Positions 9,019 through 43,484 of a DNA stretch of 64,000 nt are shown one piece after another (the stretch's first letter is position 1; the number at the start of each line of letters is the position of its first letter). Source of the DNA: an uncultured Pseudomonadota bacterium (GTDB taxonomy: Bacteria; UBA10199; JADFYH01); NCBI GenBank assembly GCA_964414715.1, contig CAYPXN010000040.1, forward strand, positions 5,988 to 69,987, in the 5' to 3' direction. The notes under the pieces were generated by a model. That model was not told the origin of the DNA and searched no databases. It was given only the letters and a program-made list of their open reading frames with translations. Both the position numbers and the translations under genes were made by a program.

Positions 9019-11157
9019 CTAAGTCCTCCCCAAAATCCTCTTGTTCACTCCCAAATAATAACTTCTGTCTGCACGGTTGCGCAAAAACATGGGAAGATTT
9101 TCTCCAATTCTTGCTGCATCTCTCCATGTGCTTAATTCATAATGGGTCATGGTCCAGCGTTCTTCTTCGAGATAAGCCATCATTTCAGAAACGATCCTGC
9201 TGTGTCGATCCAGTGAGTAAATGACAGGGTCTGCTCCAACCTCCATTTCATCGTAATTTCCCGTCCTGTGTTTCCAGTGCTCCCATTCATGAATCAGCGC
9301 CTGCAATCGCATGACCACTTCGTCTCGAGCACGAGAAATTCCTTCGTGGGTCTGCATGTTGGGCCGAGGAATATTTTTAATTACAATCAAATCCTCAATC
9401 TCTGTTCTGGGAACAAAAAAAGCCACTCCACAGTCACTGGGGGCATGCAGGGAAGAAGCCATTTCCTGAAACTCTGCTTCATCCACAATAAGAATTTGAA
9501 AAGCATGGGAATGCCATGCCCTTTTCAAACTTTCTATATGAGGAGTAGTATTTGCTTCCAGAAGTAAAATCATTTCTTCTTCTGTAAAAGGTCTTCCTGA
9601 TTCCAGAAATGCAAAGACATTATCAAGCACTCTTCTTTTTGCTTCTTCCACCTTATGTGGATTTTTTAGAGATTCTTCCACGTCCATCATCACCGAAACC
9701 ACTTTTCTGGCCAGACGCTCATCATGGATAAAAGCAGTGGCCGAGCTTCCATTCATGAGATGAGCCACCAACTGGGGATCTATTCCATTGTTTACCATCC
9801 AAGCAATGGAGCCCAGTTTATCTTCCGAATGATCTCCTTCCGTGATTTCTTTCAGCTTGTAAGGAGAATCTTCCACTGCAAAAATTTGGCAGGCTCGTCG
9901 GAACACCAACATTCCTGCTGGACTTCGAAGGGCATAGGCGAGAACTTTATAAATATCCTTGGCCTCGTAACGTCCTCCCCTGAGCGCCTGAACAACAAGA
10001 GTAGAGTTTTTGATAAAGTCACGAAGATCCTGAAGGCTCAAACGATTCGAATAAGAAAACTCATCAAACAGCTTGTAAATTTCTGCCCGAGTGATTCCTT
10101 GCCGCATGGCCTCCAAAATTTTTCCCAAACGTTCTTGACGAAGCTGGGGAGCTTCGGAAATCCCTCGACTCAACAACTCATGCAACAACATGCGGTCAAA
10201 ACCACCTGTAGGCGTTTTATCTGCTTCGGTCGTAAAAACTTCCTGTATCCCTCGTAACACATGAAGTTGTTCCAGTGTTCCCGCTTGTGGCATGCGAGAA
10301 CAAATCTCAAGCAAGCTTGTATAATGACCCATTTTTTCAAAGGGAGTTTCCAGAGCGGTTTCAATAATTTCTTGCACATAATTGTCACGATAGGGGAGAT
10401 CGGGAAAACGCGGTTTCCATGTATCTAACCAATGTTGACGCTCGGCAGGATCCTTGAAATCAAACTCGTCTCGAGGGCTTGCAAAAACTTTCAGACCTCT
10501 TTGCATCGTTTCTTCAAAAACAAAGTCTTGCTTTGAAAGTTCCGGGCCTTGAACAAGACTCTCCATGGCTTTTGTTTCACGAGCTGATATTCCCCCGGTA
10601 ACCAGTTCTCCCAAACTCATTCCCACACCCATTGCCGTATTGGTCATTTCGGCGTGGAGATATTGCTGAGTGAGAGATCCTTCAGGAGCAAGAGTCAGGT
10701 GTAGGGCATAGCTGAGATGTTCTCCCGCCACCATTCCCGTATCCTGGATAAAATGATTGAGGAACAAATGGGAGCTGCCCAATTTCCCAAAAAGTTTCAG
10801 ATTGGCAAAGTTCAGGTAAGTGCCCAGAAATTCTTCGCGCGAAAAAACAGAGGAGAGGGAAGCGTTGTTTAAAAGAATTTGACTTCCGCGATAGGCACTC
10901 ACTTCTGTAAAAAGACCCACCAAAGGAGCCAAGACTTTGCCGGCAAGAGGAGCAATGGCATCATTGGCCAAAACAGCCGCTTTTCCAAAGCGATAAGCGA
11001 GCCCGCCTGCCATCATGGAAAGAGTGTTTCTCCAATTGCACGCCTCTTCCATGAACTGGTGATCCAGGGCATCCATTTCCCTTTGTTGGGAAGTCAAGTT
11101 GTGGGAGGAAGGCAAGGATGAGCTCACGCTCATTCTGCGATCCAAGAGGTTCATCAT
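9019..11157 (-). CDS. Hypothetical 712-aa protein with a C-terminal HExxH (HEWEH) zinc-metallopeptidase-like motif. Convergent with the giant gene. No signal peptide.
   Basis: A 2.1-kb ORF cannot be chance. The motif LIHEWEHWKH lies near the C-terminus. The stop codon is TAG. No family recognised by eye. Confidence 0.7.
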   Translation of the reverse strand: MMNLLDRRMSVSSSLPSSHNLTSQQREMDALDHQFMEEACNWRNTLSMMAGGLAYRFGKAAVLANDAIAPLAGKVLAPLVGLFTEVSAYRGSQILLNNASLSSVFSREEFLGTYLNFANLKLFGKLGSSHLFLNHFIQDTGMVAGEHLSYALHLTLAPEGSLTQQYLHAEMTNTAMGVGMSLGELVTGGISARETKAMESLVQGPELSKQDFVFEETMQRGLKVFASPRDEFDFKDPAERQHWLDTWKPRFPDLPYRDNYVQEIIETALETPFEKMGHYTSLLEICSRMPQAGTLEQLHVLRGIQEVFTTEADKTPTGGFDRMLLHELLSRGISEAPQLRQERLGKILEAMRQGITRAEIYKLFDEFSYSNRLSLQDLRDFIKNSTLVVQALRGGRYEAKDIYKVLAYALRSPAGMLVFRRACQIFAVEDSPYKLKEITEGDHSEDKLGSIAWMVNNGIDPQLVAHLMNGSSATAFIHDERLARKVVSVMMDVEESLKNPHKVEEAKRRVLDNVFAFLESGRPFTEEEMILLLEANTTPHIESLKRAWHSHAFQILIVDEAEFQEMASSLHAPSDCGVAFFVPRTEIEDLIVIKNIPRPNMQTHEGISRARDEVVMRLQALIHEWEHWKHRTGNYDEMEVGADPVIYSLDRHSRIVSEMMAYLEEERWTMTHYELSTWRDAARIGENLPMFLRNRADRSYYLGVNKRILGRT

Positions 11158-11398
11158 CGTTGTGCCCCGTATGAGCTATCATCAAAAACCGATAGCTGCC
11201 CCCGTTATGATTTTTTGAACTAAAACTTTTTCGGAGATTTTGCTCAAAAGTTGCCCTAGAAATCAGGGTTTATAAAAACTTTAATTATGACGCAGAGTGT
11301 TGAAATAAGGGCATTTTCACTGCTTTCCTATCGCAACATTTTTTGTTTGCGACCGATAACTATAAATGTATGAGGGCTATAATTTGGGAGGTTTTAAT

Positions 11399-12406
11399 AT
11401 GCAGGATAGGGGAAAAAAATTAAGTCGATGGATTTATAGTGTACTGACGGCTTTGATCTTTACTTTCGGTGCCTTCGCCTGCGGCGGGGGAGATCAAGCT
11501 CAAGTCGGCGGCATTATCGGAACGGTTTCTTTTAATACCCAAGCTTGCGTGCCTCAACAAAAAATCATCAATTTTCGTAACAGCGATACCCAAAATCCCC
11601 AACGTGTAATGGGCGTTTCCTTTGAATTGGGGACGAATGATAATGGTAATTACAAAATTGATAAAGTGGTGGTTGGCGCTACTGAATATCAACCGAGTTC
11701 AAATTTAGCACAAGATGTATTGATACCTGCCGGTGGTATCATGTCTGTATATACTACTTATACTCCTCGAGTAATTACAACAAAAACAGGCCACAATCTT
11801 AGTTATTTAGATCTGTTTTTAAATGGTCCAAAATTGGGAATTCTCCAAATAAAACTAGATGGTGAGTCGGATACGGCAAAAGAAGGTTGTTCTTCTGACA
11901 ATAAAAAAACATTCAAAGTTACCAAAGCAACTTTCATTATGAATCATCAAGATTTTACTTCAGGGCAACCTAGAGAGTTTGATCTCACAATCAAAAAAGG
12001 AGATTTAAATTTAGGCATGGGAAGTGACGGAAGTTTAACTTTAAGTGAAAGTTCAGATTTTCCTACTTTAACATTACCGCTACCTCCTGAATTGGGTGCT
12101 CCAGTGCCCGAATTAGATATTACCATGGATGCTGGAAGCTACACAGGCACACTTGATGACCAAGGAAAAATGGAGCTCCAAAATTTAAATTTAAAAGCAC
12201 TCGTTATCCCAATTCCAAATGTTACTTTAACAACTGAGCCGGCAAGTATTACTCAACCTAAGGGTAGTGTTAGTGTCGAAGGAAAGAGATTAGCTGATAA
12301 TAAAGCAACACTTGTTGCAGCTATACCAGTCCCCGACGATAGCAACTTAGCAAAACTTAAAGATGGTGCTTTTGGCTTAAAAATAGAAATTGAAGCTCAA
12401 CAATAA
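11399..12406 (+). CDS. Putative lipoprotein, paralog 1 of a tandem pair, with a conserved N-terminal domain and divergent C-terminus.
   Basis: GGGAGG RBS 8 nt upstream of the ATG at 11399. N-terminal signal peptide followed by Cys (FAC-GGG). The first ~170 residues are nearly identical to the downstream paralog. Confidence 0.75.
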   Translation: MQDRGKKLSRWIYSVLTALIFTFGAFACGGGDQAQVGGIIGTVSFNTQACVPQQKIINFRNSDTQNPQRVMGVSFELGTNDNGNYKIDKVVVGATEYQPSSNLAQDVLIPAGGIMSVYTTYTPRVITTKTGHNLSYLDLFLNGPKLGILQIKLDGESDTAKEGCSSDNKKTFKVTKATFIMNHQDFTSGQPREFDLTIKKGDLNLGMGSDGSLTLSESSDFPTLTLPLPPELGAPVPELDITMDAGSYTGTLDDQGKMELQNLNLKALVIPIPNVTLTTEPASITQPKGSVSVEGKRLADNKATLVAAIPVPDDSNLAKLKDGAFGLKIEIEAQQ

Positions 12407-12428
12407 AAACAAACAATTATAAATTGTC

Positions 12429-13448
12429 ATGGGGCACCGGAGAAATCTCATGACAAATCAAAATTCTAAATCCATTCGAACTTTATATTATTATCTGATT
12501 GCAATGTTTATTTGCACCTTTGGTGCTCTTTCTTGCGGTGGAGGAGATCAAGCTCAAGTCGGCGGCATTATCGGAACGGTTTCTTTCAATACCCAAGCCT
12601 GCGTACCCCAACAAAAAATCATCAATTTTCGTAACAGCGATACCCAAAACCCCCAACGTGTAATGGGCGTTTCCTTTGAATTGGGGACGAATGATCAAAA
12701 TAAATATAAAATTGATAAAGTGGTAGTGGGTAATACTGAATATCAGCCTTCCGCAAATTTAGCACAAAATGTATTGATCCCTGCAGGGGGCATCATGAGT
12801 GTCTATACTACTTATAAAACTACTAAAGTTACAGGCTCCTCTAACGACACTTCCTATCTCGACCTATTTTTAAATGGCCCTAAACTTGGTATTTTACAAA
12901 TCAGAATGAATGGACAAGCCCCTACTGCAAAAGAAGGCTGTGGAGAAGGGGAAACAATGACCTTTACCGTTAACAAGGCGACCATGGAAATTAGTATGCC
13001 TGGCAGTTCATTTGATGGTTTTAAAAATGAGGTAACTGCAACAGGTAATTTTGTTTTCCTAGTTGCTGGAGATGGTAGTGCTACTATTGATAAAGATGGT
13101 TTTCCAAAGTTAACCTTTGTTTCTGAAGCATTAAGATCCACTCCTGTAAACAGCAATCAACTCGAGATTAAATTGGATAACGACACCTTTACAGGTACAT
13201 TTACCGACAATAAACTATCAATCGATCATTTAAAGTTAAATGCTCTATTGCCTATTGATGGCGTCACGCTCAAATCCGAAGATCTTGCCATCACAGGTGA
13301 CAATGGTGCCTCCTTAACTCTGCATGGATCAGCTTTAACTGATTCAGGAGATATGAAAGTAGTCATAGGTGTAAAAGTACAAGGATTTAATGCTGCTTTA
13401 GACGGTGCAGCAATCGGAGTGACTTTCGAACTTAAAAAACAGAATTAA
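12429..13448 (+). CDS. Putative lipoprotein, paralog 2 of the tandem pair. Alternative start ATG at 12450.
   Basis: Signal peptide with an ALSC lipobox-like motif. The mature N-terminus (GGDQAQVGGIIGTVSFNTQACVPQQKIINFRNSDTQNPQRVMGVSFELGTND) is identical to paralog 1. Confidence 0.75.
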   Translation: MGHRRNLMTNQNSKSIRTLYYYLIAMFICTFGALSCGGGDQAQVGGIIGTVSFNTQACVPQQKIINFRNSDTQNPQRVMGVSFELGTNDQNKYKIDKVVVGNTEYQPSANLAQNVLIPAGGIMSVYTTYKTTKVTGSSNDTSYLDLFLNGPKLGILQIRMNGQAPTAKEGCGEGETMTFTVNKATMEISMPGSSFDGFKNEVTATGNFVFLVAGDGSATIDKDGFPKLTFVSEALRSTPVNSNQLEIKLDNDTFTGTFTDNKLSIDHLKLNALLPIDGVTLKSEDLAITGDNGASLTLHGSALTDSGDMKVVIGVKVQGFNAALDGAAIGVTFELKKQN

Positions 13449-13506: not shown

Positions 13507-14070
13507 CTATTCGCGTGGACAGCAGGCTAGAAAAATAGTTATGCTAACATTTGTTGTTGCATTTGGAGTAAGCACACTACAATACCTACCTCTAATAATA
13601 GCCTCCGAATCAGGAATGCCCCCAAAACACAATGCACCAGGAACAATAAAACTTTTTATTGCTGAACTACATGGACCCTCTAGAAACCAAGTAGGAATTG
13701 CACCATTGGTAGAAATACTACAACCTCCACTTACAGCCACTTGACCAGAGCCGCAATCTAATTCACCTGTAACACCTTGCCTGGCAGTGAAACTTCTGTG
13801 CACTTCCCTACAGCCACTCCAAAGAATCCCAGGCCCCCTCGGCCCAGCAGGCCCTTGCAAACCCATCGGACCTATTGGTCCCTGAGGCCCCTGAATTCCT
13901 TGGGGCCCACGCTCTCCCGCTCTCCCTGGAGGGCCTTGAGGACCCGGATCTCCCGTGAAGCCTCTAGGGCCTTCACTTCCATTTTCTCCTCGCGGACCTC
14001 TTTCTCCAGTACAGCTTTCTAATAACAAGCCTGCCAAAGCAACGGCTCCAATAGCAACAATGGGCAGCAT
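13507..14070 (-). CDS. Collagen-like triple-helix repeat protein (about 25 G-X-Y triplets) with an N-terminal hydrophobic anchor or signal and a Cys-rich C-terminal globular domain.
   Basis: Translation [70 protein letters not shown] 7 nt upstream of the second ATG ([10 protein letters not shown]...). The ORF track starts 11 codons earlier. Confidence 0.75.
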
Positions 14071-14191
14071 AAATACCTCCTTGTTTGGTATCCATGTGCC
14101 CACCTAAAGTTTTACTTTCTTAAATTTTAACTCGATAAAATACAAGAAAAGTTGTTAATATTTCTCAAGCGAACACAACACGGAGCGTTAT

Positions 14192-14671
14192 ATGAAAAAG
14201 ACCTTATTCCTGATTCTTTTATTTTGTAGTCTTCCTCTTTTCGCCGCTGACAAAACGCCCGAAACCCCATCTTACAATTATTCTCCCGAACAAATTCTTT
14301 CGGAATCAAAACTCATCGCAAAAATTAAATGGGAAACTTATCCCTCCCCCCACATTATTTCCGTGCTAGTTCAAAAAGTATTTTGGGGCAGGGGAGACTG
14401 GAAAAAGGGGATTGCCGGCTGGATTGAAGGCAAGGACTATGCTTTAGATATTGCTCCGAACGGCTGGGAAAAAACTTGGGAAGGAATGGATCCCAAATAT
14501 GTACCCTTAGATAAAGAAGCCATTCTTTTTATCGATGCTTCCGGAAAACTAGTGGCCATGGGAGAAATCAAGGGAGACAAAATCATGCTCACTTGTTCTC
14601 TCACAGGGCAGAAATGCCTCATAGGCCCAAAAAATGAAATCGCAACATCTTCACTCAAGGAAATTAAATAA
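14192..14671 (+). CDS. Secreted hypothetical protein with a signal peptide.
   Basis: MKKTLFLILLFCSLPLFA signal sequence. ORF of 159 aa. No family recognised. Confidence 0.55.
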   Translation: MKKTLFLILLFCSLPLFAADKTPETPSYNYSPEQILSESKLIAKIKWETYPSPHIISVLVQKVFWGRGDWKKGIAGWIEGKDYALDIAPNGWEKTWEGMDPKYVPLDKEAILFIDASGKLVAMGEIKGDKIMLTCSLTGQKCLIGPKNEIATSSLKEIK

Positions 14672-17167: not shown

Positions 17168-18814
17168 ATGACCACTCAAATACCTTTTGATTTTGAACAA
17201 GAAGAAAAAGAAGGCGAAGGTTTTTCCCAAAATATTGCAGAAGAAGGGCCTGAAATAGCCCAGGTTTCCAGTAGGGCAGGGATGGTAGGTTTTTACACCT
17301 TCCTTTCACGAATCTTTGGATTGGGTCGAGATACCCTGATTGCCTACTTGTTGGGAGCCAAAGAAGCCGCAGATGCCTTCTATGTGGCATTTCGTATTCC
17401 CAATCTTTTAAGAAGACTTTTAGCCGAGGGTTGCCTGACCATTTCTTTCATTCCTGTTTTCACGGAATATTTAAGAAAAGATAAAAAAGAGGCTAAGCAG
17501 GTGGCGGATTATACCTTTACTCTTTTAACCCTCCTTTTGTTTGTAATCACTCTCATTGGGGTAGTTTTCGCAGGATTCTTTGTAAAATTGACGGCCTTTG
17601 GATTTACCGAAGATCCCCAAAAATATGCGCTTACGGTACAACTCACCCGTATTACCTTTCCCTATATATTCTTGGTAAGCTTGGGGGCCCTTTCAATGGG
17701 CATCCTGAATTCCCTCAAACATTTTTCAACTCCAGCGGCTTCTCCGATTTTTTTAAATGTCGGGATTATCTTGGGGGCGATTCTTCTCAGACATCACACT
17801 TCCCAGCCTTCTGTGGCCCTGGCAATCGGCGTGATTTTGGGGGGAGTGATGCAGATTCTTCTCCAAATTCCCGCGCTCATCAAATTCGGTTTTCTTCCCC
17901 GAATATCCTGGAATCCGCAACATCCTGGGGTACAAAAAATTCTCAAACTGATGCTCCCTTCGATTTATGGATCGGCAGTTTATCAACTCAATCTTTTTGC
18001 CATTACTTTTATGGCTTCATTTTTAACCACAGGCGCGGTGAGTTACCTTTGGTATGCAGATCGAGTGATGGAATTTCCTTTGGGAGTTTTTGCCATCAGT
18101 TTTGCAACGGTTATTTTGCCCCAACTCTCCGATCATGCGGCAGATAAAAACATCCCCAAATTCAAGTCTTCTTTTTTGGAAGGCTTGAGCATGATTTACT
18201 TTATTAATTTTCCCGCGACCGTGGGACTTATCACTTTGGCAAACCTGATTATTTCAGTATTATTTCAACACGGACACTTTTCCGAAAATTCCACGATCAT
18301 GACCGCTCAAACGCTGCAATGCTTTGCCTTGGGTCTTCCCTTTGTATCGGGCACTCGCATTACCTCCTCTGCCTTTTATGCTGTTCAAGATTCCAAAAGC
18401 CCCGTGAAGGCGGCCAATATCGCCGTATTTGCAAACATCATCATGGGAGCAATTCTTCTAAAACCCTTGGGACACAAAGGTTTGGCCTTGGGCGTGGCCT
18501 TCGGTTCCATGACTAATTTCTTGCTGCATATTTTTGACTTTCGAAAAAAGATGGGGGCCTTGGGACTCAAAAAAATGATCCCATCTGTTTTGAAAATGGT
18601 TGCGGCTTCTTTGGGAATGGGGCTTGTTTTGATTTTTTCCCAAGCTTTCATACGCGCTCATCTGGGCACTTCCACCTTGGGACGTTTTTCCGCTCTTTTA
18701 ATCTTGATCGCTTTGGGAGGAGGGACTTATATTCTTTTTGCAAAATTACTTAAGATTCCCGAAACGGAACATTTTTTAAGTATCTTAAAAAGAAAGCTGA
18801 AAAAGAAAAAATGA
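17168..18814 (+). CDS. murJ: Lipid II flippase MurJ (MviN).
   Basis: FLSRIFGLGRDTLIAYLLGAKEAADAFYVAFRIPNLLRRLLAEG with about 14 TM segments. Length 548 aa. Confidence 0.9.
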   Translation: MTTQIPFDFEQEEKEGEGFSQNIAEEGPEIAQVSSRAGMVGFYTFLSRIFGLGRDTLIAYLLGAKEAADAFYVAFRIPNLLRRLLAEGCLTISFIPVFTEYLRKDKKEAKQVADYTFTLLTLLLFVITLIGVVFAGFFVKLTAFGFTEDPQKYALTVQLTRITFPYIFLVSLGALSMGILNSLKHFSTPAASPIFLNVGIILGAILLRHHTSQPSVALAIGVILGGVMQILLQIPALIKFGFLPRISWNPQHPGVQKILKLMLPSIYGSAVYQLNLFAITFMASFLTTGAVSYLWYADRVMEFPLGVFAISFATVILPQLSDHAADKNIPKFKSSFLEGLSMIYFINFPATVGLITLANLIISVLFQHGHFSENSTIMTAQTLQCFALGLPFVSGTRITSSAFYAVQDSKSPVKAANIAVFANIIMGAILLKPLGHKGLALGVAFGSMTNFLLHIFDFRKKMGALGLKKMIPSVLKMVAASLGMGLVLIFSQAFIRAHLGTSTLGRFSALLILIALGGGTYILFAKLLKIPETEHFLSILKRKLKKKK

Positions 18815-19311
18815 CGGAACCCGTCAAGCCGGTATCTAAAGTAGAAAAGGTCACTTCCCTGGAGAAGGGAAAGTCTCCTTCTGTCACATCTTCTGAAAGC
18901 TCATCGAATATTTCTTCTCCAAATCCTTCTTTTCAAATTCCTGTAGCAGATGTTTTTATAAAAGATCAAACTTCCGCTTTTGTAGGACCCGATTCCTTTG
19001 TATCAGGTGAAGAAGTACTTTCTGCCTCCTTGGCTCTTTTTGCACCCGAAACCCAAAAGAAAGAAAACGATTTGACTCCCGCCCAAAAAACAATGGAATT
19101 GACTAATTTGGACTACCTGCTCGGAATTTCCTCGACGCGCGTCGCTCCAAAGAGTGAGGGGAGCTCTGCTGAACTCTCGAAACACCGGGAAGAAATGCTG
19201 GCCTTGTATGCCGCTCATGCCTCCGGACAAGCGCGCTTAGCTGAAAAAAAGAAAAAAAATCTTTGGAAAAGAATTTCTGGATTCTTGAAGTCTATCTTCC
19301 TGAATAGTTGA
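18811..19311 (+). CDS. Ser-rich hypothetical protein, translationally coupled to murJ.
   Basis: ATGA overlap with the murJ stop. 166 aa. No family recognised. Confidence 0.45.
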   Translation: MTEPVKPVSKVEKVTSLEKGKSPSVTSSESSSNISSPNPSFQIPVADVFIKDQTSAFVGPDSFVSGEEVLSASLALFAPETQKKENDLTPAQKTMELTNLDYLLGISSTRVAPKSEGSSAELSKHREEMLALYAAHASGQARLAEKKKKNLWKRISGFLKSIFLNS

Positions 19312-19369: not shown

Positions 19370-20854
19370 ATGGAAGATACAAATATTTATCGCGAACAGC
19401 GCCTCGAAAAAGTCAAAAAAATGCAGTCGGATGGAGTGAATCCCTATCCGAATGGTATCAAGCCTGAACACCTTGCCGGAAAAATTCATCAACAATTCGG
19501 CGACATGTCCAAGGAAGAACTGGAAGCCCGCCCGGATGTTTACTCTCTTGCAGGCCGAGTGATGGCCATCCGTTCTTTCGGAAAAGCTTCTTTCATTCAA
19601 GTTCGCGACCGTAGCGGACAAATCCAGATTTTTATCCAAAAAGATTCTCTTACAGAAGCCGAATTCAATCTTTTTAAAACTTTGGATGTGGGAGACTTTG
19701 TTTTTGTAAAAGGCACTTTGTTTCGCACAAAAACAAATGAACTGACAATCAAAGCTCAAACTTTTTCCATTGCAGTAAAATCGATTCGAAATCTTCCCGA
19801 AAAATGGCACGGTTTATCGGATGTTGAAACACGCTATCGTCAACGCTATGTGGATATGATCGCCAATCCCGAAGTGAAAAATACCTTCGTGATGCGTTCG
19901 AAGATTATCCAGTTTATCCGTGAATTTTTTACCCAACGGGATTTTCTGGAAGTGGAAACTCCCATGATGCATCCCATTCCCGGAGGAGCCACAGCCCGAC
20001 CTTTTATTACGCATCATAATACCTTGGATATGAAATTGTTCTTACGTATTGCTCCCGAACTCTATCTCAAAAGACTTGTGGTGGGGGGCTTGGAACGTGT
20101 TTTTGAAATCAATCGCAATTTCCGTAATGAAGGAATTTCCATCCAGCACAATCCCGAATTTACGATGCTTGAATTCTATCAAGCTTATGCGACCTATGAA
20201 GATTTGATTGAGTTGAGTCAGGAACTTTTGAGTCAGCTCGCACTCAAAGTCTGCGGAAGCACAGAGATCGAATATCAGGGAACTCCGATTAGCTTTAAAG
20301 CTCCCTTCAAGCGTTGCCGTTTCATGGATTCTTTGGTGGAAATCGGGGGAGCTCCCGCTGAAATACTGACTTCCAGGGATGCAGCCTATCAATTCGCCCA
20401 AAAACTTGGGATAAAGTTGAAATATGAAAGCGAAGGACACCTTGCAATTTTGACAGAAATTTTTGAAGAAATCGTAGAACCGAAACTGATCAATCCAACC
20501 TTTATCACTCATTACCCCACGGAAGTTTCACCGCTTTCGCGCAAAAATGATCAGGATCCAAACTTTACCGATCGTTTCGAGCTTTTTATTTATGGTCGTG
20601 AATTGGCCAATGCCTTCTCGGAGCTGAATGACCCCGTCGATCAAAAAGAACGTTTTTTAAAACAGGTGGAATCTCGGGAAAAAGGCGACGACGAAGCCAT
20701 GTTTTTCGATGAAGATTACATCCGTGCTCTGGAGTATGGCATGCCTCCCACCGCAGGGCAGGGAATTGGTATAGATCGTTTAGTCATGCTCTTAACCAAT
20801 CAGGCTTCGATTCGTGATGTCATTTTGTTTCCGCAATTGAGAAAAGAAAAATAG
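19370..20854 (+). CDS. lysS: Lysine--tRNA ligase, class II.
   Basis: N-terminal OB-fold anticodon-binding domain, class II motifs (FRNEGIS..HNPEFTMLEFY; GGQGIGIDRLVM). Length 494 aa. Stop codon TAG. Confidence 0.95.
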   Translation: MEDTNIYREQRLEKVKKMQSDGVNPYPNGIKPEHLAGKIHQQFGDMSKEELEARPDVYSLAGRVMAIRSFGKASFIQVRDRSGQIQIFIQKDSLTEAEFNLFKTLDVGDFVFVKGTLFRTKTNELTIKAQTFSIAVKSIRNLPEKWHGLSDVETRYRQRYVDMIANPEVKNTFVMRSKIIQFIREFFTQRDFLEVETPMMHPIPGGATARPFITHHNTLDMKLFLRIAPELYLKRLVVGGLERVFEINRNFRNEGISIQHNPEFTMLEFYQAYATYEDLIELSQELLSQLALKVCGSTEIEYQGTPISFKAPFKRCRFMDSLVEIGGAPAEILTSRDAAYQFAQKLGIKLKYESEGHLAILTEIFEEIVEPKLINPTFITHYPTEVSPLSRKNDQDPNFTDRFELFIYGRELANAFSELNDPVDQKERFLKQVESREKGDDEAMFFDEDYIRALEYGMPPTAGQGIGIDRLVMLLTNQASIRDVILFPQLRKEK

Positions 20855-23395: not shown

Positions 23396-24067
23396 ATGGA
23401 AAGCATTCTCGAAGCAAAAAACATTCATAAGTCCTATGGAAAAGAAGGGCAGAAGATCGAAGTTTTAAGAGGCATAAGTTTTAGTTTGCAGAAAAGTGAA
23501 CCCGTAGTAATTGAGGGCGCCTCAGGTGCGGGAAAATCCACCTTACTTCATATATTAGGAGCTCTGGATAAGCCCACTGAAGGTTCGGTCTTTTTTAAAA
23601 AAAGTGACCTGTTCGAAAAAACTGAGAAGGAACTTTCAGACTTTCGAAACAAGGAATTGGGTTTTGTATTTCAGTTTCACCATCTTCTTCCATTGTTTAC
23701 AGCTTTGGAGAACGTAATGATGCCGGCCCTGATTGCAGGGATTTCAAAGATGGAAACCCTTGAAATGGCAAAACTCCTTCTGCAACAGGTTGGCCTAGAG
23801 CATCGATTGAGTCATAAAGCAAACGAACTCTCAGGAGGAGAACAACAGCGCGTAGCCATTGCCCGGGCACTGATTATGAAACCCAAATTGTTGCTGGCGG
23901 ACGAACCCACGGGAAACTTGGATGCTGAAAATTCTCGGATGATTTTCGACTTGCTTTTAAAAATGAGTGAGCACTATCAAACGACACTTGTTTTAGTAAC
24001 CCATAATGAAGTATTGGCATCGAGTCTGAAAAAACGAATTCGAATCCAGGATGGAAAAATTGTTTAG
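23396..24067 (+). CDS. lolD: Lipoprotein-release ABC transporter ATP-binding protein LolD.
   Basis: Walker [13 protein letters not shown] signature [15 protein letters not shown], Walker B LLLADEPT. Confidence 0.9.
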
Positions 24068-26015
24068 AAGATTTTGTTCAAAAATAATTTCAATTTCACT
24101 CAACAAAAGAACTTTGGCACTTTGTTGCCTGCTTACTTTTTCCCTTTCTCTTTTTCCTATCAACTCTTGGGCCGCTGAAACCATCACTTCAGTAGACGTG
24201 GAAGGTTTGTCCAAAGTCGACAAAGTCACCGCTCTCAAGGCAATCAAAACAAAGGCGGGAGATTCCTATTCCTTGGAAGCAGTTCACCAAGATCTGAAAA
24301 GCCTTTACGCTTTGGGAATTTTTTCCGATATCGAAGTAAACAAGGAAGCTGCCGGTTCAGGGGTAAAAATCATTTTCAAGGTCAAGGAACGCCCCGTCAT
24401 CACCAAAATTTCTATTCAGGGAGCAAAGGGAGTTTCAGATTCAAAGGTTCGTGAAGTAATCGTTCAGAAAGAAGACCAACCTTTGGATGAAAAGAAGGTA
24501 GGGGAGTCCAAAGAAAAGATCAAAGAACTTTACTCCAAAGAAGGTATGGGCTTGGCGGTTGTAAATACCGAGATAAAAAACCTCAAAAACGATGAAGCTG
24601 AACTGATATTCAAAATTAGCGAAAACAAGAATCTCAAAGTCAAAAAAATCACTTTTGAAGGAAATACCGTTTTTTCTTCGCGCAAACTTCGTAGCTTTAT
24701 GGCTACCAAAGAAAAAGGCTTTCTTTCCTTTTTGACGGGTTCCGGAAAATACCGCGATGAAATGATTGAAAGAGATACTGCTTTTCTGACTTATCAGTAT
24801 CTCAATAAAGGCTACTTAAAGGTTCAAGTCGATAAACCTGAAATCATCCCTTTGGCGAAAGGAAATGGAATTGAAGTTCATTATAAGATCGTTGAAGGGG
24901 AGCGTTATAAAATCAGAAATGTGACCCTTCAAGGAGATGTCCTTACCACCAAAGAAGAACTTCTTTCAAAATTCACCACGCTAAAAGGCAACTATTATTC
25001 TCAAAAGTTATTGGAAGATGATATTCAAAAACTTACAGAACTTTACGGAAACCAAGGTTATGCCTTCGCCAACATCCGTCCACAGCCCAATCCCGATGAT
25101 GCCAGCAAAGAGGTGGACATTAATGTTCTCATCGATAAAGGCGACAAAATTGCAGTCGAAAAAATTAATATCACAGGGAATACCATCACTCGAGACAAGG
25201 TGATTCGTCGCGAATTAAAAATCACCGAGAACAGTTTTTACAATGAAGAACTCGTTCAACAATCCAAGAAAAAACTGGAAGCCTTGGGTTATTTTGAAAA
25301 AGTTGAAATTTCTACCCCCAAAGGGACCGCAGACGACAAACTCAATCTCAATATTAATGTGAAAGAAAAGCCGACCGGCTCTTTTTCTGTGGGAGCAGGT
25401 TACAGCTCGGTAGAAAGTTTCCTGGTCACGGCATCTATCACCAAGCAAAACTTCATGGGTTTGGGAATCAGCGGATCCGTGTTGGCTGAAGTTTCAAAAC
25501 TCCGACAACAATTTTCTCTTCAATATGCAGACCCATACTTCCTAGACACGAAATGGATCTTTTCAGGAAACGTTTCCAAACTATTGACTCGTTTCGACGA
25601 CTTCGACCGTGATGCCCTCAGTGGCGAAGTAAATATGGGACGACATCTCTTTGACAATTCTTCTGCAACCCTGGGATACCGTATTGAAAAAGTGAAAGTA
25701 GACAATTTCTCTCTCGTTGTTCCCCAATTCTTTCAACAAGACACGAGTGGGGTAACCTCCAGCGCCCTTGTTGCAATGGAAAGAGACACGCGTAACAATC
25801 GTTTGGCAGCGACCAAGGGGGATTATGAGCAGGTCGTCGCAGAATATGCGGGCTTGGGTGGGAACAACCACTTTTTCCGAGTAAATGCCAATGCCCGCTA
25901 CTTTTTGCCGGTCCCAGTTCCCTTTTTAAAATCTTCGGTCTTTAAAGCCAATTTAAGAATTGGTTATATTAAATCTCTTGAAAACGGCACTCCCGTTCCC
26001 TTGTTTGAACGCTAG
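24051..26015 (+). CDS. bamA: Outer-membrane protein assembly factor BamA, major N-terminal part (signal peptide, POTRA repeats, most of the barrel), ending at an in-frame TAG.
   Basis: POTRA-like repeats followed by beta-barrel sequence. The ORF stops at ...PVPLFER* while the conserved BamA motif continues in the same frame downstream. Confidence 0.85.
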   Translation: MEKLFRRFCSKIISISLNKRTLALCCLLTFSLSLFPINSWAAETITSVDVEGLSKVDKVTALKAIKTKAGDSYSLEAVHQDLKSLYALGIFSDIEVNKEAAGSGVKIIFKVKERPVITKISIQGAKGVSDSKVREVIVQKEDQPLDEKKVGESKEKIKELYSKEGMGLAVVNTEIKNLKNDEAELIFKISENKNLKVKKITFEGNTVFSSRKLRSFMATKEKGFLSFLTGSGKYRDEMIERDTAFLTYQYLNKGYLKVQVDKPEIIPLAKGNGIEVHYKIVEGERYKIRNVTLQGDVLTTKEELLSKFTTLKGNYYSQKLLEDDIQKLTELYGNQGYAFANIRPQPNPDDASKEVDINVLIDKGDKIAVEKINITGNTITRDKVIRRELKITENSFYNEELVQQSKKKLEALGYFEKVEISTPKGTADDKLNLNINVKEKPTGSFSVGAGYSSVESFLVTASITKQNFMGLGISGSVLAEVSKLRQQFSLQYADPYFLDTKWIFSGNVSKLLTRFDDFDRDALSGEVNMGRHLFDNSSATLGYRIEKVKVDNFSLVVPQFFQQDTSGVTSSALVAMERDTRNNRLAATKGDYEQVVAEYAGLGGNNHFFRVNANARYFLPVPVPFLKSSVFKANLRIGYIKSLENGTPVPLFER

Positions 26016-26390
26016 TTCACTGGGGGTGTAAACTCTTTGAGAGGTTTTGCCCCTCGAACCATTGGTCCCAAACTTCAAATTCCACCCAGCACCACGGCAG
26101 GAGATCAAACCTTCGTCTATGGGGGGGATAAGTTACTGGTATTCAATATGGAATATGAATTCCCCATTTATGATCCCGCCAACTTTAGAGGAGTTATTTT
26201 CATTGATGCCGGTAATGCTTATGCTGAGAATCAGGACTTAAACCCATTGAAAGTCCGCACAGATTGGGGTTTTGGAGTCCGTTGGGTTTCTCCATTTGGA
26301 CCTTTACGATTTGAATGGGGTTTACCTTTCCATAAGCAACCTGGAGAACAAAGCATCGTCTTCAACTTCACAATTGGTACTTTCTTTTAA
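26016..26390 (+). CDS. bamA: C-terminal barrel segment of BamA, in the same frame as 24051..26015 and separated from it only by the TAG at 26013-26015.
   Basis: FTGGVNSLRGFAPRTIGPK...ends ...TIGTFF, with a C-terminal aromatic residue. 26037-24051 = 1986 = 3x662, so the frames are identical. Confidence 0.8.
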   Translation, partial: FTGGVNSLRGFAPRTIGPKLQIPPSTTAGDQTFVYGGDKLLVFNMEYEFPIYDPANFRGVIFIDAGNAYAENQDLNPLKVRTDWGFGVRWVSPFGPLRFEWGLPFHKQPGEQSIVFNFTIGTFF

Positions 26391-26511: not shown

Positions 26512-27039
26512 ATGAAAAAGATTCTGATTTCTGTAGCAGTGTTAGGTTCACTTTTTTTGGGTCATGCCGTGATGGCTCAGGAAAAAGTAGGTTTGATTGA
26601 TCTTCAAAAAGCTCTCAATGAAGTGGAAGAAGGTAAAGCTGCAAAGGCACGTTTGAAAGCCGAATTTGATGCAAAACAAAAAACTTTGGATGCATTGCAA
26701 AATGATCTCAAAGCGATGAAAGACAACTTGGAAAAACAAAAACTTGTTTTAAGTCAGGATGCTCTCAAACAAAAAGAAATTGAATACCGCGATAAATTTA
26801 TCGAACTCCAAAAGAAGCTGGCAGAATTCCGAGGAGAGCTTCAACAAAAAGAAGCCCAGTACACAGGAGACATCATCATTGCTTTAAAGCAATTAGTCAG
26901 TGAAGTTGGGGCAAAAGACAAATACACTCTTATTTTCGAAAAAGGACAAGACGTGGTTTTGTATGCACCTAATGCAACCGATCTGACTCCTGCATTAATT
27001 CAGCTGTACAACTCCAAACCCCATCCTGCAAAAAAATAG
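26512..27039 (+). CDS. skp: Periplasmic chaperone Skp/OmpH.
   Basis: Signal peptide followed by a coiled-coil Lys/Glu-rich sequence. Sits immediately after bamA, as in many Gram-negatives. Confidence 0.8.
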   Translation: MKKILISVAVLGSLFLGHAVMAQEKVGLIDLQKALNEVEEGKAAKARLKAEFDAKQKTLDALQNDLKAMKDNLEKQKLVLSQDALKQKEIEYRDKFIELQKKLAEFRGELQQKEAQYTGDIIIALKQLVSEVGAKDKYTLIFEKGQDVVLYAPNATDLTPALIQLYNSKPHPAKK

Positions 27040-27050
27040 ATTAAAGCTTC

Positions 27051-27707
27051 ATGGCTATAAGCACTGAACTTCTGAAACTACTTGTTTGCCCCAAGTGCAA
27101 AAAGGCTCTTCAGTATCAATCTAAAGAAGATGCTTTGCTATGTTCTTCTTGTTCACTTTTGTACCCTATACAGGAAGGCGTTCCTGTGATGAGCGAAGAA
27201 GAAGCTTTTGAAATCGGAAAGGGAGGGGAACTTATGACCAAAGCTACAAAGTCACCGGTAGCTATTTTCAAAATCAAAGAGGGTCCCAACCAAGGTGAGT
27301 CTCTTAAGCTCCCTCTCGATTCTTGTCGAGCCATTGGAAGAAGCATCGACGATGTGAACAAAACCCAAATCTTCAACATGGAGCCTATTGTTCCACTGGA
27401 TGACTTTACCAAAAAACTCGTCTTGAATTATCTTTCCAAGAAAAAGGGTAAAGCAGCTCCTGCAAAAGCAAACACTGAAAATGCCTTTGGAAGTTTTAAA
27501 AGACTTCCAGACTTGGTCCTCAACGATCCAGCCATTTCCAGACTTCATGCCATGCTTTTTTATGATGAGAGTGGGGCGGGAATATTAGATTTGGTTTCCA
27601 GAAATGGTACTTTTGTAAATGGTCAAGAAGTGGAGTCTCGTACTTTAAAAGAAGGGGACCTCATTGAAATTGGTGCCACTAAAATTGCATTTTCAATGTC
27701 GAACTAG
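27051..27707 (+). CDS. Trm112-like zinc-ribbon domain fused to an FHA domain.
   Basis: N-terminus LLKLLVCPKCKKALQY...LLCSSCSLLYPIQEGVPVM (Trm112/UPF0434). C-terminus AIGRS...ISRLHAML...SRNGTFVNGQ (canonical FHA motifs). Confidence 0.7.
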   Translation: MAISTELLKLLVCPKCKKALQYQSKEDALLCSSCSLLYPIQEGVPVMSEEEAFEIGKGGELMTKATKSPVAIFKIKEGPNQGESLKLPLDSCRAIGRSIDDVNKTQIFNMEPIVPLDDFTKKLVLNYLSKKKGKAAPAKANTENAFGSFKRLPDLVLNDPAISRLHAMLFYDESGAGILDLVSRNGTFVNGQEVESRTLKEGDLIEIGATKIAFSMSN

Positions 27708-29223: not shown

Positions 29224-31383
29224 ATGGTCACTCTCGAAAAGATCATTCAGAACATCAAATCCTACAACCCCCAAGGGGATTTTTCTCTCATTCAAAAAGC
29301 AGGGGATTTTGCCAGTAAGGTTCATAAAGGCCAAGAAAGGCAATCCGGAGAACCTTATATTATTCATCCTCTCGAAGTTGCTGAAATTCTTGTTCAAATG
29401 AAACTCGATGTTCCGTCTATTGTTGCAGCACTGCTTCACGATACGATAGAAGATACTTCTGCAACTCTCGACGAAATCAAAAAAGAATTCGGACCTGAAA
29501 TTGCCCACTTGGTAGATGGCGTAACCAAACTCAGCAAAATTCAATTTTCGAGCGCACAAGAAAAACAGGCCGAAAATTTTCGCAAAATGATCATGGCTAT
29601 GGCGAAAGACATCCGGGTTATTCTGATCAAGCTTGCGGATCGCCTCAACAACATGAGAACTCTGAAACACCTCTCCGAAGAAAGACAACAAAACATTGCC
29701 CGCGAAACCATGGATATCTATGCTCCTTTAGCAAACCGTTTGGGAATCCAGTGGATGAAGGTTGAACTCGAGGAGTTATCTTTCAAATATCTTAAACCTG
29801 AAGCCTATAAAGATATTGATGAAAAAATGAGGCAGGTTAAAAAAGAATCTGCTCCTTATATTGAGAAAGTGCTCCAGGAAGTTTCAAGCAAGCTGAATGA
29901 GTATAAAGTTCCCCATCAAATTTATGGTCGCCTCAAACATTATTTTAGTATTTACAGAAAAATGGCGGCCCAAAACATTTCTTTTGAACAAGTAAATGAC
30001 TTGATTGCTTTCCGAATTATCGTGGACAACATTACACAGTGTTATACTGCCCTAGGAATTATTCACGAACTTTGGACCCCCATCCCCGGGCGATTCAAGG
30101 ATTACATTGCCATGCCCAAGGCAAACAACTATCAATCACTCCATACCACTGTAGTATGCATGGAAGGAGAGCGTGCAGAATTCCAGATTCGAACGAAAGA
30201 AATGAATGAAGTGGCGGAAAAAGGGATCGCTGCACACTGGAACTACAAAGAAAATGGTTCGATCGACGACAAAGATCAGCAAAAATTTCAGTGGGTACAG
30301 GAACTGCTAAAATGGCAAAACGAACTCAAAGACCCGGCCGAATTTCTCGATACCGTCAAACTTGATTTATTTGCCACAGATGTTTATGTTTTTACACCCA
30401 ATGGTGATGTGAAAGAACTTCCTCACGGAGCCACTCCTATTGATTTTGCCTATTCCATTCACTCTGACGTGGGAAATCGCTGTGTGGGTGCAAAAGTAAA
30501 TGAAAAGATTGTCCCTCTTAATTATCGCTTACGAAGCGGTGACACCATAGAAATTCTCACAAGTGCCCATCACAAACCCTCCAAAGACTGGCTTAAATTC
30601 GCCGTCACTTCCCGGGCAAAATCCAGGATTCGCCAAGTAATTCAACACGAACAACGAGAAAAAAGTATTATCCTGGGAAAAGAGTTAATTGAAAAGGAAT
30701 TCGAAAAATTCAAACTTTCCCCCTCAAAATACATGAAAGGGGAAGAACTCAAGCACGCCATTCAGGAAATGGGCTATCAAAATCTTGAAACCTTACAAAT
30801 GCACGTGGGTTATGGAAAAATTTCTCCCTTACAATTTATTTCAAAACTCGTTCCACGTGAACTTCTTGCAGAAAAAGCTTCAGAAGAAACAAAAGCCGAA
30901 AGTACTCTTTCCAGAATTTTCAAAAAGGTAAAAGAACGTGGTAAGAGCATTGTAAAAGTAGGTGGCTACGACGACATCATGGTATCTTTGGGGCGTTGCT
31001 GCTCCCCTCTACCTGGAGATCCTATCATAGGATTTATTACGCGAGGCAGGGGAGTTGTGGTTCACATTATGGACTGTGCCAAGGTTCTTTCCACAGACCC
31101 CGAACGAAGAGTGGAGGTTGCTTGGGACAAACACAGTGAAGCTTCTCATCAGGCAAAACTGAAAATTGTAAGTGCAGACAGACCTGGCCTCTTAGCATCC
31201 ATGAGTAAAACTATTGCCAATGAAGGGGTCAATATCTCTCAGGCTTCCATACGAACCACGAGTGACGAAAAAGCAGTAAATATCTTTGAAGTGGAAATCA
31301 AAAACATCTCCCAATTAAAAGGAGTATTACGGGCCTTGGAAAAATTGGGAGGAGTAATCAGCGTGGAGAGAATAAGGAATTAA
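29224..31383 (+). CDS. spoT: Bifunctional (p)ppGpp synthetase/hydrolase, Rel/SpoT long RSH.
   Basis: HD hydrolase domain (HPLEVAEIL..HDTIED), synthetase domain, and TGS plus ACT C-terminal domains. Length 719 aa. Confidence 0.9.
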   Translation: MVTLEKIIQNIKSYNPQGDFSLIQKAGDFASKVHKGQERQSGEPYIIHPLEVAEILVQMKLDVPSIVAALLHDTIEDTSATLDEIKKEFGPEIAHLVDGVTKLSKIQFSSAQEKQAENFRKMIMAMAKDIRVILIKLADRLNNMRTLKHLSEERQQNIARETMDIYAPLANRLGIQWMKVELEELSFKYLKPEAYKDIDEKMRQVKKESAPYIEKVLQEVSSKLNEYKVPHQIYGRLKHYFSIYRKMAAQNISFEQVNDLIAFRIIVDNITQCYTALGIIHELWTPIPGRFKDYIAMPKANNYQSLHTTVVCMEGERAEFQIRTKEMNEVAEKGIAAHWNYKENGSIDDKDQQKFQWVQELLKWQNELKDPAEFLDTVKLDLFATDVYVFTPNGDVKELPHGATPIDFAYSIHSDVGNRCVGAKVNEKIVPLNYRLRSGDTIEILTSAHHKPSKDWLKFAVTSRAKSRIRQVIQHEQREKSIILGKELIEKEFEKFKLSPSKYMKGEELKHAIQEMGYQNLETLQMHVGYGKISPLQFISKLVPRELLAEKASEETKAESTLSRIFKKVKERGKSIVKVGGYDDIMVSLGRCCSPLPGDPIIGFITRGRGVVVHIMDCAKVLSTDPERRVEVAWDKHSEASHQAKLKIVSADRPGLLASMSKTIANEGVNISQASIRTTSDEKAVNIFEVEIKNISQLKGVLRALEKLGGVISVERIRN

Positions 31384-34027: not shown

Positions 34028-34408
34028 ATGGCAGATCAAAACACACAAGGCTCAGGCGGATCCGGCTTGGCTCCCAATGTTGCCTCACTACTTTGCTATC
34101 TTTGTACATTTATTACCGGTATTATCTTTTTGCTCATCGAAAAAGATAACAAGCAGGTGAAATTCCATGCTTGGCAGGCCATTTTTCTCGGGGCAGGCTC
34201 CATTGTCATTCAAATTGCAGTGGCCATTCTTACCGCCATTATGGGAGCAATCTCAGGTGCTTTAGCAACTATCATTAGCCTCCTAGGAACCTTGGTGTAT
34301 CTTGGAATTTTCGTAATCTGGATTGTTGCCATGGTAAAAGCCTATCAAGGTCAACAATGGAAAATTCCATTCATTGGTGATCTGGCTGAAAAACAAGCTG
34401 CAAAATAA
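34028..34408 (+). CDS. DUF4870-like small membrane protein.
   Basis: Translation ...KFHAWQAIFLG... with 3 TM segments. Confidence 0.6.
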   Translation: MADQNTQGSGGSGLAPNVASLLCYLCTFITGIIFLLIEKDNKQVKFHAWQAIFLGAGSIVIQIAVAILTAIMGAISGALATIISLLGTLVYLGIFVIWIVAMVKAYQGQQWKIPFIGDLAEKQAAK

Positions 34409-38528: not shown

Positions 38529-39764
38529 TTACTGCTCCATAAATTCCACAATTTCTTCGTGACGGGATTTCATGTCTTCAAAACCCAATTGCAATAAACG
38601 TTGGAGGTAACTGGGTAAAAAGCTGATATAAGACAACATATCAATACCGCCTTTTGTATCAGCATCCAAAAATCGGATCAAAAACTTCTCAAAAGAAGTG
38701 AAATGCTCGCTGCCTTCATGCCGAAAACACTGGCTAAAAATATTTCCAATATCTTGGGAAGGTCGAATACGAAATACCGATATTTTCTTAAGACCTCTTT
38801 CTCCAAAAGCGCCCACATCTTTCTTTTTTCCCAAAAAGGAGTTCATTTTCGAAAGGAAACTTTTTCCCTGCATTTCTTCGCACCATTCTATTATTTTGTT
38901 GATGCGTTCGAGTTGTTCCATGTCGTTCTGAATTTTATCCAGAAACATCGCATTCATCACGCGACCCAAAACCTGACCCAAGGCAGGCGGTTCTCCTTTT
39001 ACACCTTGAACCGGAACTTTTTCTCCCGGCTTGGCACGATGATTCAAACCAATCACCAAAATTGCATCTGCACCCAAGTGAATAGCGGGAGAGAGAGGGG
39101 TATTCAAGCGCAAACCTCCATCGGTATAAGCGACATCATTGATCATCACGCTGGGGAAAATCACAGGGATGGCAGCAGAGGCAGCGGCATGAACGGGTTG
39201 AATAGGTCCGTTATGAATAATCGCTTCTCCCCGGTAAGGAACTTTTTCATTTTTTTGAACAAAGAGTTCCAGGCGTCCGGTAAAAACATTTGTCGTCACA
39301 ATCGAAATAGCATCTAAAAAACCTTCCTGAATATTGCGTCCAATTCTTTTCCAGGGGATTGCCTGTTCGATAAAGGGAAGAAAAGGGGAGGTGTCCAAGA
39401 AGCCCGGAAAGTGCGGTGATTCCGTTCCCGAACGCCGAAGAAACTTCATCATCATTCCCTTTGAATTCTTACCCAAAAATTCAAATAGAGCTTTCAGATT
39501 TCTCTTATAAATATTTTCTTCGCGAACGTTTTCCCAGAGACGATAAATTTCATTTCCCTGAAGCTCGGGTACATGGGCTGTAGAAGCCATAAAGCAACTA
39601 TTCAGGGCGCCCACAGAAGCCCCACAAATAATCTCAAAATTTCTGTTTTTGCAAGAAGGGGGGAGTTGGGTGCGCAGATAATGCAAAACGCCCGCTTCAT
39701 AGGCACCTCGCGCACCTCCACCTGACAAAACCAAGGCCAACTTCTTTTTGGATTTTCCTCCCAT
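38529..39764 (-). CDS. Patatin-like phospholipase, paralog A.
   Basis: GGGARGAYEAGV plus GASVGALN (G-x-S-x-G) plus DGG motif. Confidence 0.85.
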   Translation of the reverse strand: MGGKSKKKLALVLSGGGARGAYEAGVLHYLRTQLPPSCKNRNFEIICGASVGALNSCFMASTAHVPELQGNEIYRLWENVREENIYKRNLKALFEFLGKNSKGMMMKFLRRSGTESPHFPGFLDTSPFLPFIEQAIPWKRIGRNIQEGFLDAISIVTTNVFTGRLELFVQKNEKVPYRGEAIIHNGPIQPVHAAASAAIPVIFPSVMINDVAYTDGGLRLNTPLSPAIHLGADAILVIGLNHRAKPGEKVPVQGVKGEPPALGQVLGRVMNAMFLDKIQNDMEQLERINKIIEWCEEMQGKSFLSKMNSFLGKKKDVGAFGERGLKKISVFRIRPSQDIGNIFSQCFRHEGSEHFTSFEKFLIRFLDADTKGGIDMLSYISFLPSYLQRLLQLGFEDMKSRHEEIVEFMEQ

Positions 39765-42099: not shown

Positions 42100-42227
42100 C
42101 ATTCCTAAAATAAGTGATGAGACCCTAATCAATAATCTAAAAAACAATAGACAGCAACCCCTTCTTTGCCCTTAAAATAGTGGAATTCCGAGGAGCGGGA
42201 CTTTTTTTCACACTTCAGGGGAGGCTT

Positions 42228-43484
42228 ATGGGACATTTGGGATTGGTATTATCAGCAGGAGGCGCTCGCGCTGCTTATGAAGCGGGAGTTTTACATTATA
42301 TTCGCACAGGACTTCCCAAACATATTGCGGCAAAACCCTTTGATGTTCTCTGTGGCAGCTCCGCGGGAGCTATCAACACTGTAGGACTTGCGGCTCTGGC
42401 ACACGACCCCGTTTATCAGGGAGAACAAATCAAAAATCTTTGGCTGAACCTCACCCAAGACAATATCTATAAAAGAGATTTTTCAACCACTGCAGGATTT
42501 GTCATGAGTTCTTTGGGAGGAATTGTTCGAAACCTCACCACACTCAGTCCTTTTGATTTGGGAAATAAAAAAGGACCTCACCTGACTGCTTTTTTCGACA
42601 CCAGCCCCTTAAAAGAACTTCTCAAGAAAATTATCCCTTTTGATCAAATCCAGAAAAATATTGATAACAATCTCATCAAGGCAATTAGCGTTACCACGAC
42701 AAATACTCGCAGTGGTCGCAGTGAACTCTTCATGCAAAAACGGAAAGATGTGGAATACACGGGAGAATATATTCATCATCTGGGTCCCTTGAAGGTTGAC
42801 CACGTTATGGCTTCGGCTGCCATTCCGGTAATTTTTCCCTCTGTAAAAATCGGCAAAGTATACTACACGGACGGGGGACTGCGTTTGTTTACGCCCATGT
42901 CTCCTGCAATACAGTTGGGGGCAGACCGCATCATCATTATCGGACTTCGTCATCGTCCCACACCGGAAGAAATGATTGAATATGATAGCAAGGAAATGAC
43001 CCATCCTCCTTCTGTGGCAGAACTGATGGGACGAGTAATGAACGGAATTTTTCTGGATCGTATCCAGTTCGATTTGGAACAGGCCCAACGCATTAATAAA
43101 ATCATTGATTGGAGCCAGAAAGTTTTTGGAGACGATTACCTTGATCAAATCAACCGTTTCCTGAAAAAGCAGGGCATTATTGGAGACATTGCCAGCCGAG
43201 GATTAAGGAAATTACGCTATGTAGAAATTTTACCTTCTGAATTCGTAAGCAATCTTTTTGAACGTTGGTTCAAAAAAGCCAGAAAAGACGGTTCGATTGA
43301 TTTCTCCAGCATGGAAAAACTTCTCACCCGACTTTTGGATGTCAATACGGATGGCGCGATCGAACTTCTGAGCTACCTGACTTTTTCAAAAGATTACCTA
43401 AAAGAACTCATTGACTTGGGCTACGAGGATGCCAAAAGACAGAGAAATCGATTGATAGACTTAATGGATGATGATGAGGAATAA
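42228..43484 (+). CDS. Patatin-like phospholipase, paralog B.
   Basis: LVLSAGGARAAYEAGV plus GSSAGAIN plus DGG. The C-terminal region is also paralogous to 38529..39764. Confidence 0.85.
   Translation: MGHLGLVLSAGGARAAYEAGVLHYIRTGLPKHIAAKPFDVLCGSSAGAINTVGLAALAHDPVYQGEQIKNLWLNLTQDNIYKRDFSTTAGFVMSSLGGIVRNLTTLSPFDLGNKKGPHLTAFFDTSPLKELLKKIIPFDQIQKNIDNNLIKAISVTTTNTRSGRSELFMQKRKDVEYTGEYIHHLGPLKVDHVMASAAIPVIFPSVKIGKVYYTDGGLRLFTPMSPAIQLGADRIIIIGLRHRPTPEEMIEYDSKEMTHPPSVAELMGRVMNGIFLDRIQFDLEQAQRINKIIDWSQKVFGDDYLDQINRFLKKQGIIGDIASRGLRKLRYVEILPSEFVSNLFERWFKKARKDGSIDFSSMEKLLTRLLDVNTDGAIELLSYLTFSKDYLKELIDLGYEDAKRQRNRLIDLMDDDEE

Follow-up and report, generated by a model that had tools for sequence, protein, structure and literature searches.

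The bamA gene in one metagenome-assembled contig is interrupted by a single in-frame amber codon, and this TAG is most probably, with a likelihood that we put at about 80%, a T-to-G consensus error of that contig. In eight further contigs from this organism the codon at this place is one for tyrosine and the gene is intact, and comparison with them points to TAT (Tyr655) as the correct reading. The stretch of DNA analysed here, called the window below, comprises 64,000 nucleotides, and the features on which the argument turns are as follows.

23396-24067, plus strand: ABC-transporter ATPase of 223 aa, the upstream neighbour of bamA, with a functional TAG stop and a 17-nt overlap with the bamA start
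24051-26390, plus strand: bamA, which encodes five POTRA repeats and a 16-strand Omp85 barrel in 779 codons before the final TAA; codon 655 is its sole defect
26013-26015, plus strand: the in-frame TAG, codon 655 of bamA; TAT (Tyr) in all other assemblies of the organism
26015, plus strand: the sole differing base, G in the window and T in 8/8 other distinct contigs (9 loci)
26016-26390, plus strand: the part of bamA that follows the TAG, 124 codons and the stop; Omp85 profile positions 200-325, E 6.8e-29
26037-26048, plus strand: LRGF, the conserved loop-6 (V/L)RGF motif of Omp85 proteins by its sequence, aligned to NSVRGF of the solved BamA 9pxj
26512-27039, plus strand: skp/ompH, 175 aa, the downstream neighbour, with a functional TAG stop

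The bamA frame and its surroundings

Translation of bamA in one frame (24051-26390) gives 654 residues, the TAG and a further 124 residues, the last of them FNFTIGTFF, up to the natural TAA; no frameshift lies between the two pieces. The window reads GAA CGC TAG TTC ACT GGG GGT at 26007-26027. The Omp85 profile (PF01103) is matched from position 1 to 198 of its 325 positions upstream of the TAG and from 200 to 325 downstream; exactly one profile position is absent, which indicates that the lesion is a pure codon substitution without an indel. The POTRA profile (PF07244) recognises five stretches in the gene (E 2.4e-63), and the joined product aligns end to end with the solved BamA structure 9pxj_A (E 2.5e-85). 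The joined product has matches to more than 3,000 database proteins as well; the top 120 are all full-length BamA proteins of 691-816 aa except one, a 654-aa truncated product (P0005). Judged by these similarities, the joined gene is BamA, an Omp85-family outer membrane protein assembly factor.

The 16-strand barrel of BamA is closed by its last strand, which pairs against strand 1. The segment that follows the TAG encodes the remainder of loop 6 and the C-terminal strands, and the product ends in GTFF, i.e., the C-terminal aromatic residue is present. Seven sense codons separate the TAG from LRGF, which forms part of SLRGF at 26034-26048. The orphaned C-terminus has been gene-called as a 117-aa ORF with a TTG start at 26037. 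Among the 55 genes of the window, bamA alone contains an internal stop; the uninterrupted frame proper to BamA is broken here at codon 655 and is preserved in all eight conspecific contigs.

These results bear out what an earlier note, made from the letters of the window, had said of the site: that an in-frame TAG at 26013-26015 lies inside bamA (CGC TAG TTC ACT at 26010-26021) and that the frame runs on through it within the conserved motif (PVPLFER*FTGGVNSLRGF). The note had also assigned the terminal strands with their C-terminal aromatic residue to the downstream part, correctly, but had given this part 125 codons, and it consists of 124 sense codons and the stop.

The genes around bamA are arranged in the order lysS, two FtsX/MacB-type permeases, the ABC ATPase, bamA, skp/ompH, Trm112-FHA, yicC, gmk and relA/spoT. 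This layout suggests that the ATPase encoded at 23396-24067 is LolD and that, together with the two upstream FtsX/MacB_PCD permeases, it may form a lolCDE-like set. The gene just after skp, at 27051-27707 (plus strand), encodes a 218-aa protein that combines an N-terminal Trm112p-like zinc ribbon with a C-terminal FHA / YscD-cytoplasmic-type domain.

Several other genes of the window deserve mention in their own right. Within a giant ORF of 2,979 aa at 9-8948 (plus strand), Pfam recognises two regions only, a RelA/SpoT nucleotidyltransferase at residues 1062-1207 and, at 1706-1773, an FHA domain. For a (p)ppGpp-synthetase-like domain this architecture is unusual; the window also contains a canonical relA/spoT gene of 719 aa, at 29224-31383. 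The 198-aa protein encoded at 13507-14103 (minus strand) carries collagen triple-helix (G-X-Y) repeats, which are uncommon among bacteria. A squalene-hopene cyclase (59164-61218, plus strand; E 3.6e-140) indicates hopanoid synthesis, a small membrane protein of the MamF/MmsF family is encoded at 34028-34408 (plus strand), and two patatin-like phospholipase genes are found less than 4 kb apart at 38529-39764 (minus strand) and 42180-43484 (plus strand). The ORFs of 712, 346, 339, 159 and 166 aa gave no Pfam match at E <= 1e-5; the positions of these Pfam-less ORFs are 9019-11157 (minus strand), 11366-13448 (plus strand), 14192-14671 (plus strand) and 18811-19311 (plus strand).

Codon 655 in conspecific contigs and in homologues

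Eight conspecific contigs that span the site, with 99.6-99.99% DNA identity to the window, were collected from ENA, Logan and JGI assemblies, six of them being pulled with the skp gene downstream of bamA as a handle; these eight are not fully independent, as some ENA and Logan assemblies may share runs with each other. TAT is read in the ENA contigs of ERZ27282891, ERZ17987007 (a contig seen in four samples), ERZ27282920 and ERZ27282949, in the Logan contigs of SRR6837549, SRR6837557 and SRR6837571, and in the JGI contig of 3300015610 (1,441 bp). A G at 26015 thus occurs in none of the eight. The Logan SRR6837549 contig differs from the window by one mismatch in 15,352 nt, and this mismatch is position 26015 (T vs G). 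The ENA ERZ27282891 contig k141_1621911 differs by four mismatches in 19,389 nt, 26015 among them.

The contigs fall into two local haplotypes, which are split by a linked synonymous triple at 26210, 26213 and 26225; the second haplotype is represented by SRR6837557, ERZ27282920 and JGI 3300015610. TAT is present in both haplotypes, which points to T as the ancestral base and to G as derived and private to the assembly of the window. Of the 64,000 bases of the window, 45,952 are represented in conspecific contigs, with differences at 25 positions. The only position at which the window is contradicted by three or more independent contigs is 26015. The variants common to at least two distinct contigs comprise seven synonymous, two nonsynonymous and one intergenic change; being mostly silent, they look like true polymorphism that has passed through purifying selection, against which a private nonsense change stands out.

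The same picture is obtained at the protein level. In a collection of about 15 billion proteins, the 654-aa truncated product is recorded on a single NCBI contig (72,872 bp), to which the 117-aa C-terminal product is likewise confined. The 90%-identity cluster of the 654-aa product has one other member, an intact 779-aa protein (P0121), in which the two bamA pieces of the window are joined by Tyr655 and which is 778/779 identical to the window by tblastn. P0121 is encoded by both the ENA ERZ27282891 contig k141_1621911 and the Logan SRR6837549 contig. A 41-nt pattern of the site that allowed any base at the variable position had no match in the GTDB representative genomes, which means that the source genome does not represent its species there, and none in the JGI metagenome collection, from which the known JGI contig is apparently absent. 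Exact look-ups of the 654-aa product, the 712-aa gene and a 434-aa gene returned no indexed contig, for the last two probably on account of differing recorded starts. The peptide by which the site could be detected in metaproteomes is ...TPVPLFERYFTGGVNSLR.

Two of the conspecific contigs show irregularities at their ends. The Logan SRR6837557 contig has five mismatches in its first 100 nt (window 24595-24691), four of them nonsynonymous in bamA; this cluster looks like contig-end assembly errors, and such artefacts thus occur in these data. The ENA ERZ27282891 contig k141_1621911 begins with a leftover Illumina TruSeq adapter (GACGTGTGCTCTTCCGATCT, bases 1-19) and matches the window from base 20.

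Beyond the species, the residue at codon 655 is aromatic in all 118 homologues with the ER-x-F-x-GG-xxx-LRG[FY] motif (F in 76, Y in 42), and the closest relatives have Y at this position. In the nearest other species the codons at the site are CGT TAT TTT. Among the species-level genomes of GTDB the closest, at 80% protein identity, is a MAG of an uncultured member of the Pseudomonadota, and the organism of the window is accordingly an uncultured bacterium recorded from metagenomes only. Codons for F and for Y never end in G, which rules out import of the G from a related strain; a chimeric join with such a strain was rejected because no homologue has a G-ending codon at the site. The earlier note had guessed that the lost residue was Y, W or F and had stated that TAT, TGG or TTT on re-sequencing would make the TAG a plain error; the residue is Y in every conspecific contig, and the eight other assemblies of the same population, all reading TAT, favour an error among the origins that the note had listed.

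Possible origins of the stop

The course of events that we consider most probable is a replacement of T by G at 26015, the third position of the Tyr codon TAT, in the consensus of one deposited contig. The G would have arisen in sequencing, assembly or polishing and not in cells, the likely route being low read depth combined with a miscalled or unsupported base. The real bamA of the organism would then be an ordinary intact gene of 779 codons with Tyr655, yielding normal BamA. The G is private to one assembly, as is typical of an artefact, and is absent from other assemblies of the same strain. About 4.5% of the possible single-base substitutions in the window genes create a stop, so that a small number of false nonsense codons is to be expected among a few dozen consensus errors in a draft genome, and these are precisely what a search for in-frame stops brings to light.

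Local consensus errors are documented for uncurated MAGs, and through them faulty gene sequences enter public databases (PMC7111523). The present case resembles those described by Chen et al. (2020, Genome Res., PMC7111523) in that an isolated lesion corrupts one gene and is not supported by independent assemblies; it differs from them in that theirs were mostly short unsupported stretches or scaffolding gaps recognised by read mapping, whereas here one base is concerned and was recognised by comparison of contigs. The direction of the change also agrees with the substitution bias of Illumina data, in which T suffers errors most often and the wrong base is preferentially G (Schirmer et al. 2016, PMC4787001), and T replaced by G is the commonest substitution class in HiSeq/GAII metagenome data (PMC4787001). 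The link to Illumina comes from the TruSeq adapter in the sister assembly ERZ27282891, and the platform of the deposited assembly may differ. The three bases before the site are CTA, unlike the GG-ending motif to which the strongest Illumina substitution bias is tied (PMC4787001), and this counts against an error. Contig names from several samples give the organism a coverage of 2.6-8.8x. Taken together, the T-to-G class, the low coverage and the known errors of MAGs are suggestive but weak support for a consensus error.

The alternative that survives best, unlikely as we find it, is that the TAG is a real private variant, present in the reads of one sample, functionless, and picked by the assembler. 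Its carriers could be a subpopulation with a recent TAT-to-TAG mutation, dying cells, or one chromosome copy of a polyploid cell. Real single-base polymorphism is present in this population, and with the G the inverted repeat at 26006-26019 (TGAAC-GCTA-GTTCA; 5-bp stem, 4-nt loop), otherwise imperfect, becomes perfect. Such a perfect repeat would result if a quasi-palindrome were corrected by template switching, whether in cells or during a polymerase step. Around 5.4% of random substitutions in the window likewise complete such a repeat, and quasi-palindrome template switching was set aside as the source of the G, the coincidence not being significant at this chance rate.

Against a real variant stands the absence of the G from all eight other contigs, one of which is otherwise identical over 15 kb, and the function of the protein points the same way. 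In E. coli BamA, loop 6 is anchored to strands 12-14 by the VRGF663 motif, and both BamA itself and its substrates depend on the RGF motif for their assembly (PMC4890855; PMC12712708). BamA being essential and its RGF motif required (PMC4890855; PMC12712708), a nonsense allele should not reach the majority that an assembler would normally take. If the stop were real, the 654-aa product would be devoid of LRGF and the C-terminal strands and hence inactive; such a truncated allele should be lethal and, therefore, should not be the majority in the population. Furthermore, the shared variants, being mostly synonymous, suggest a population under purifying selection, in which a bamA nonsense allele would not survive.

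Decoding of the TAG, by programmed readthrough, a Tyr-inserting supF-like suppressor, pyrrolysine or reassignment of the codon, would allow full-length BamA to be made from the gene as deposited, and we regard it as very improbable. The perfectly continuous frame and the full conservation of both bamA halves would fit such decoding, as would the identity of the lost residue, since classical amber suppressors insert Tyr. However, the stop is not conserved: TAT is found in all eight conspecific contigs and in the nearest species, and F or Y in 118/118 homologues. All members of the species, at the least, should share a programmed stop, which they do not here. TAG is, moreover, an ordinary terminator here, ending 12 of the 55 window genes (TAA 33, TGA 10), including both neighbours of bamA as well as lysS (19370-20854) and the 712-aa gene (9019-11157), for both of which the earlier note had rightly taken TAG to be a genuine stop. 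The genes that follow the TAG-terminated genes of the lolD-like ATPase and skp lie in other frames, and no internal TAG was found in any other of the 55 window genes. ARAGORN detected no tRNA in the 64-kb window, and no stimulatory RNA structure was found from the TAG onward (120 nt, 26005-26124; z = +0.26 vs shuffles).

Comparison with known systems leads to the same assessment. The change has the form of a classical amber mutation (TAT/TAC to TAG), i.e., a third-position transversion that turns a Tyr codon of an essential gene into TAG; unlike in laboratory amber alleles rescued by a supF-type tRNA-Tyr(CUA), TAG terminates 22% of the window genes and the allele is confined to one assembly. 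An in-frame TAG inside a conserved enzyme-like gene also recalls pyrrolysine or reassigned-TAG decoding. In contrast to such systems, each of the 118 homologues has Tyr or Phe at the site, the TAG lacks conservation, this codon is widely used as a stop, and no pyrrolysine pathway (pyl) family occurs among the annotated window genes. We likewise see a very slight chance that the TAG is a genuine allele of living cells in which full-length BamA is supplied through a Tyr-inserting amber suppressor tRNA or by a second intact chromosome copy (polyploidy). If true, this would show that a gene essential to the outer membrane can depend, in nature, on nonsense suppression or heterozygosity.

It is hardly credible that bamA is a true pseudogene with another Omp85 protein in its role: beyond the stop itself nothing speaks for decay, the lesion is single and without a frameshift in a sequence otherwise 778/779 identical to the intact conspecific protein, the conspecific gene is intact, no relative shares the lesion, and the features of gene decay (several lesions, relaxed constraint, the lesion in close relatives) are missing. 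No second Omp85 gene was found in the window by tblastn, and the statement of the earlier note that bamA is single-copy stands with these 64 kb as its scope. As to the three origins between which the note had left the choice, an error is the one retained, a recent private nonsense variant keeps a minor place, and readthrough or suppression is contradicted by the lack of conservation within the species, the wide use of TAG as a terminator, and the absence of a downstream structure and of a tRNA in the window.

Significance for the contig and the organism

The biological weight of this TAG is small, and its value is in the quality control of one deposited contig. An essential gene has been split into products of 654 aa and 117 aa, both of which are already in protein databases, and the correct 779-aa protein, with TAT encoding Tyr655, is available from other assemblies. 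In-frame stops in MAGs can be tested cheaply in the way used here: conspecific contigs are fetched via a neighbouring gene and the codon is compared. For the organism itself, a T-to-G consensus error would mean that its bamA is an ordinary intact gene.
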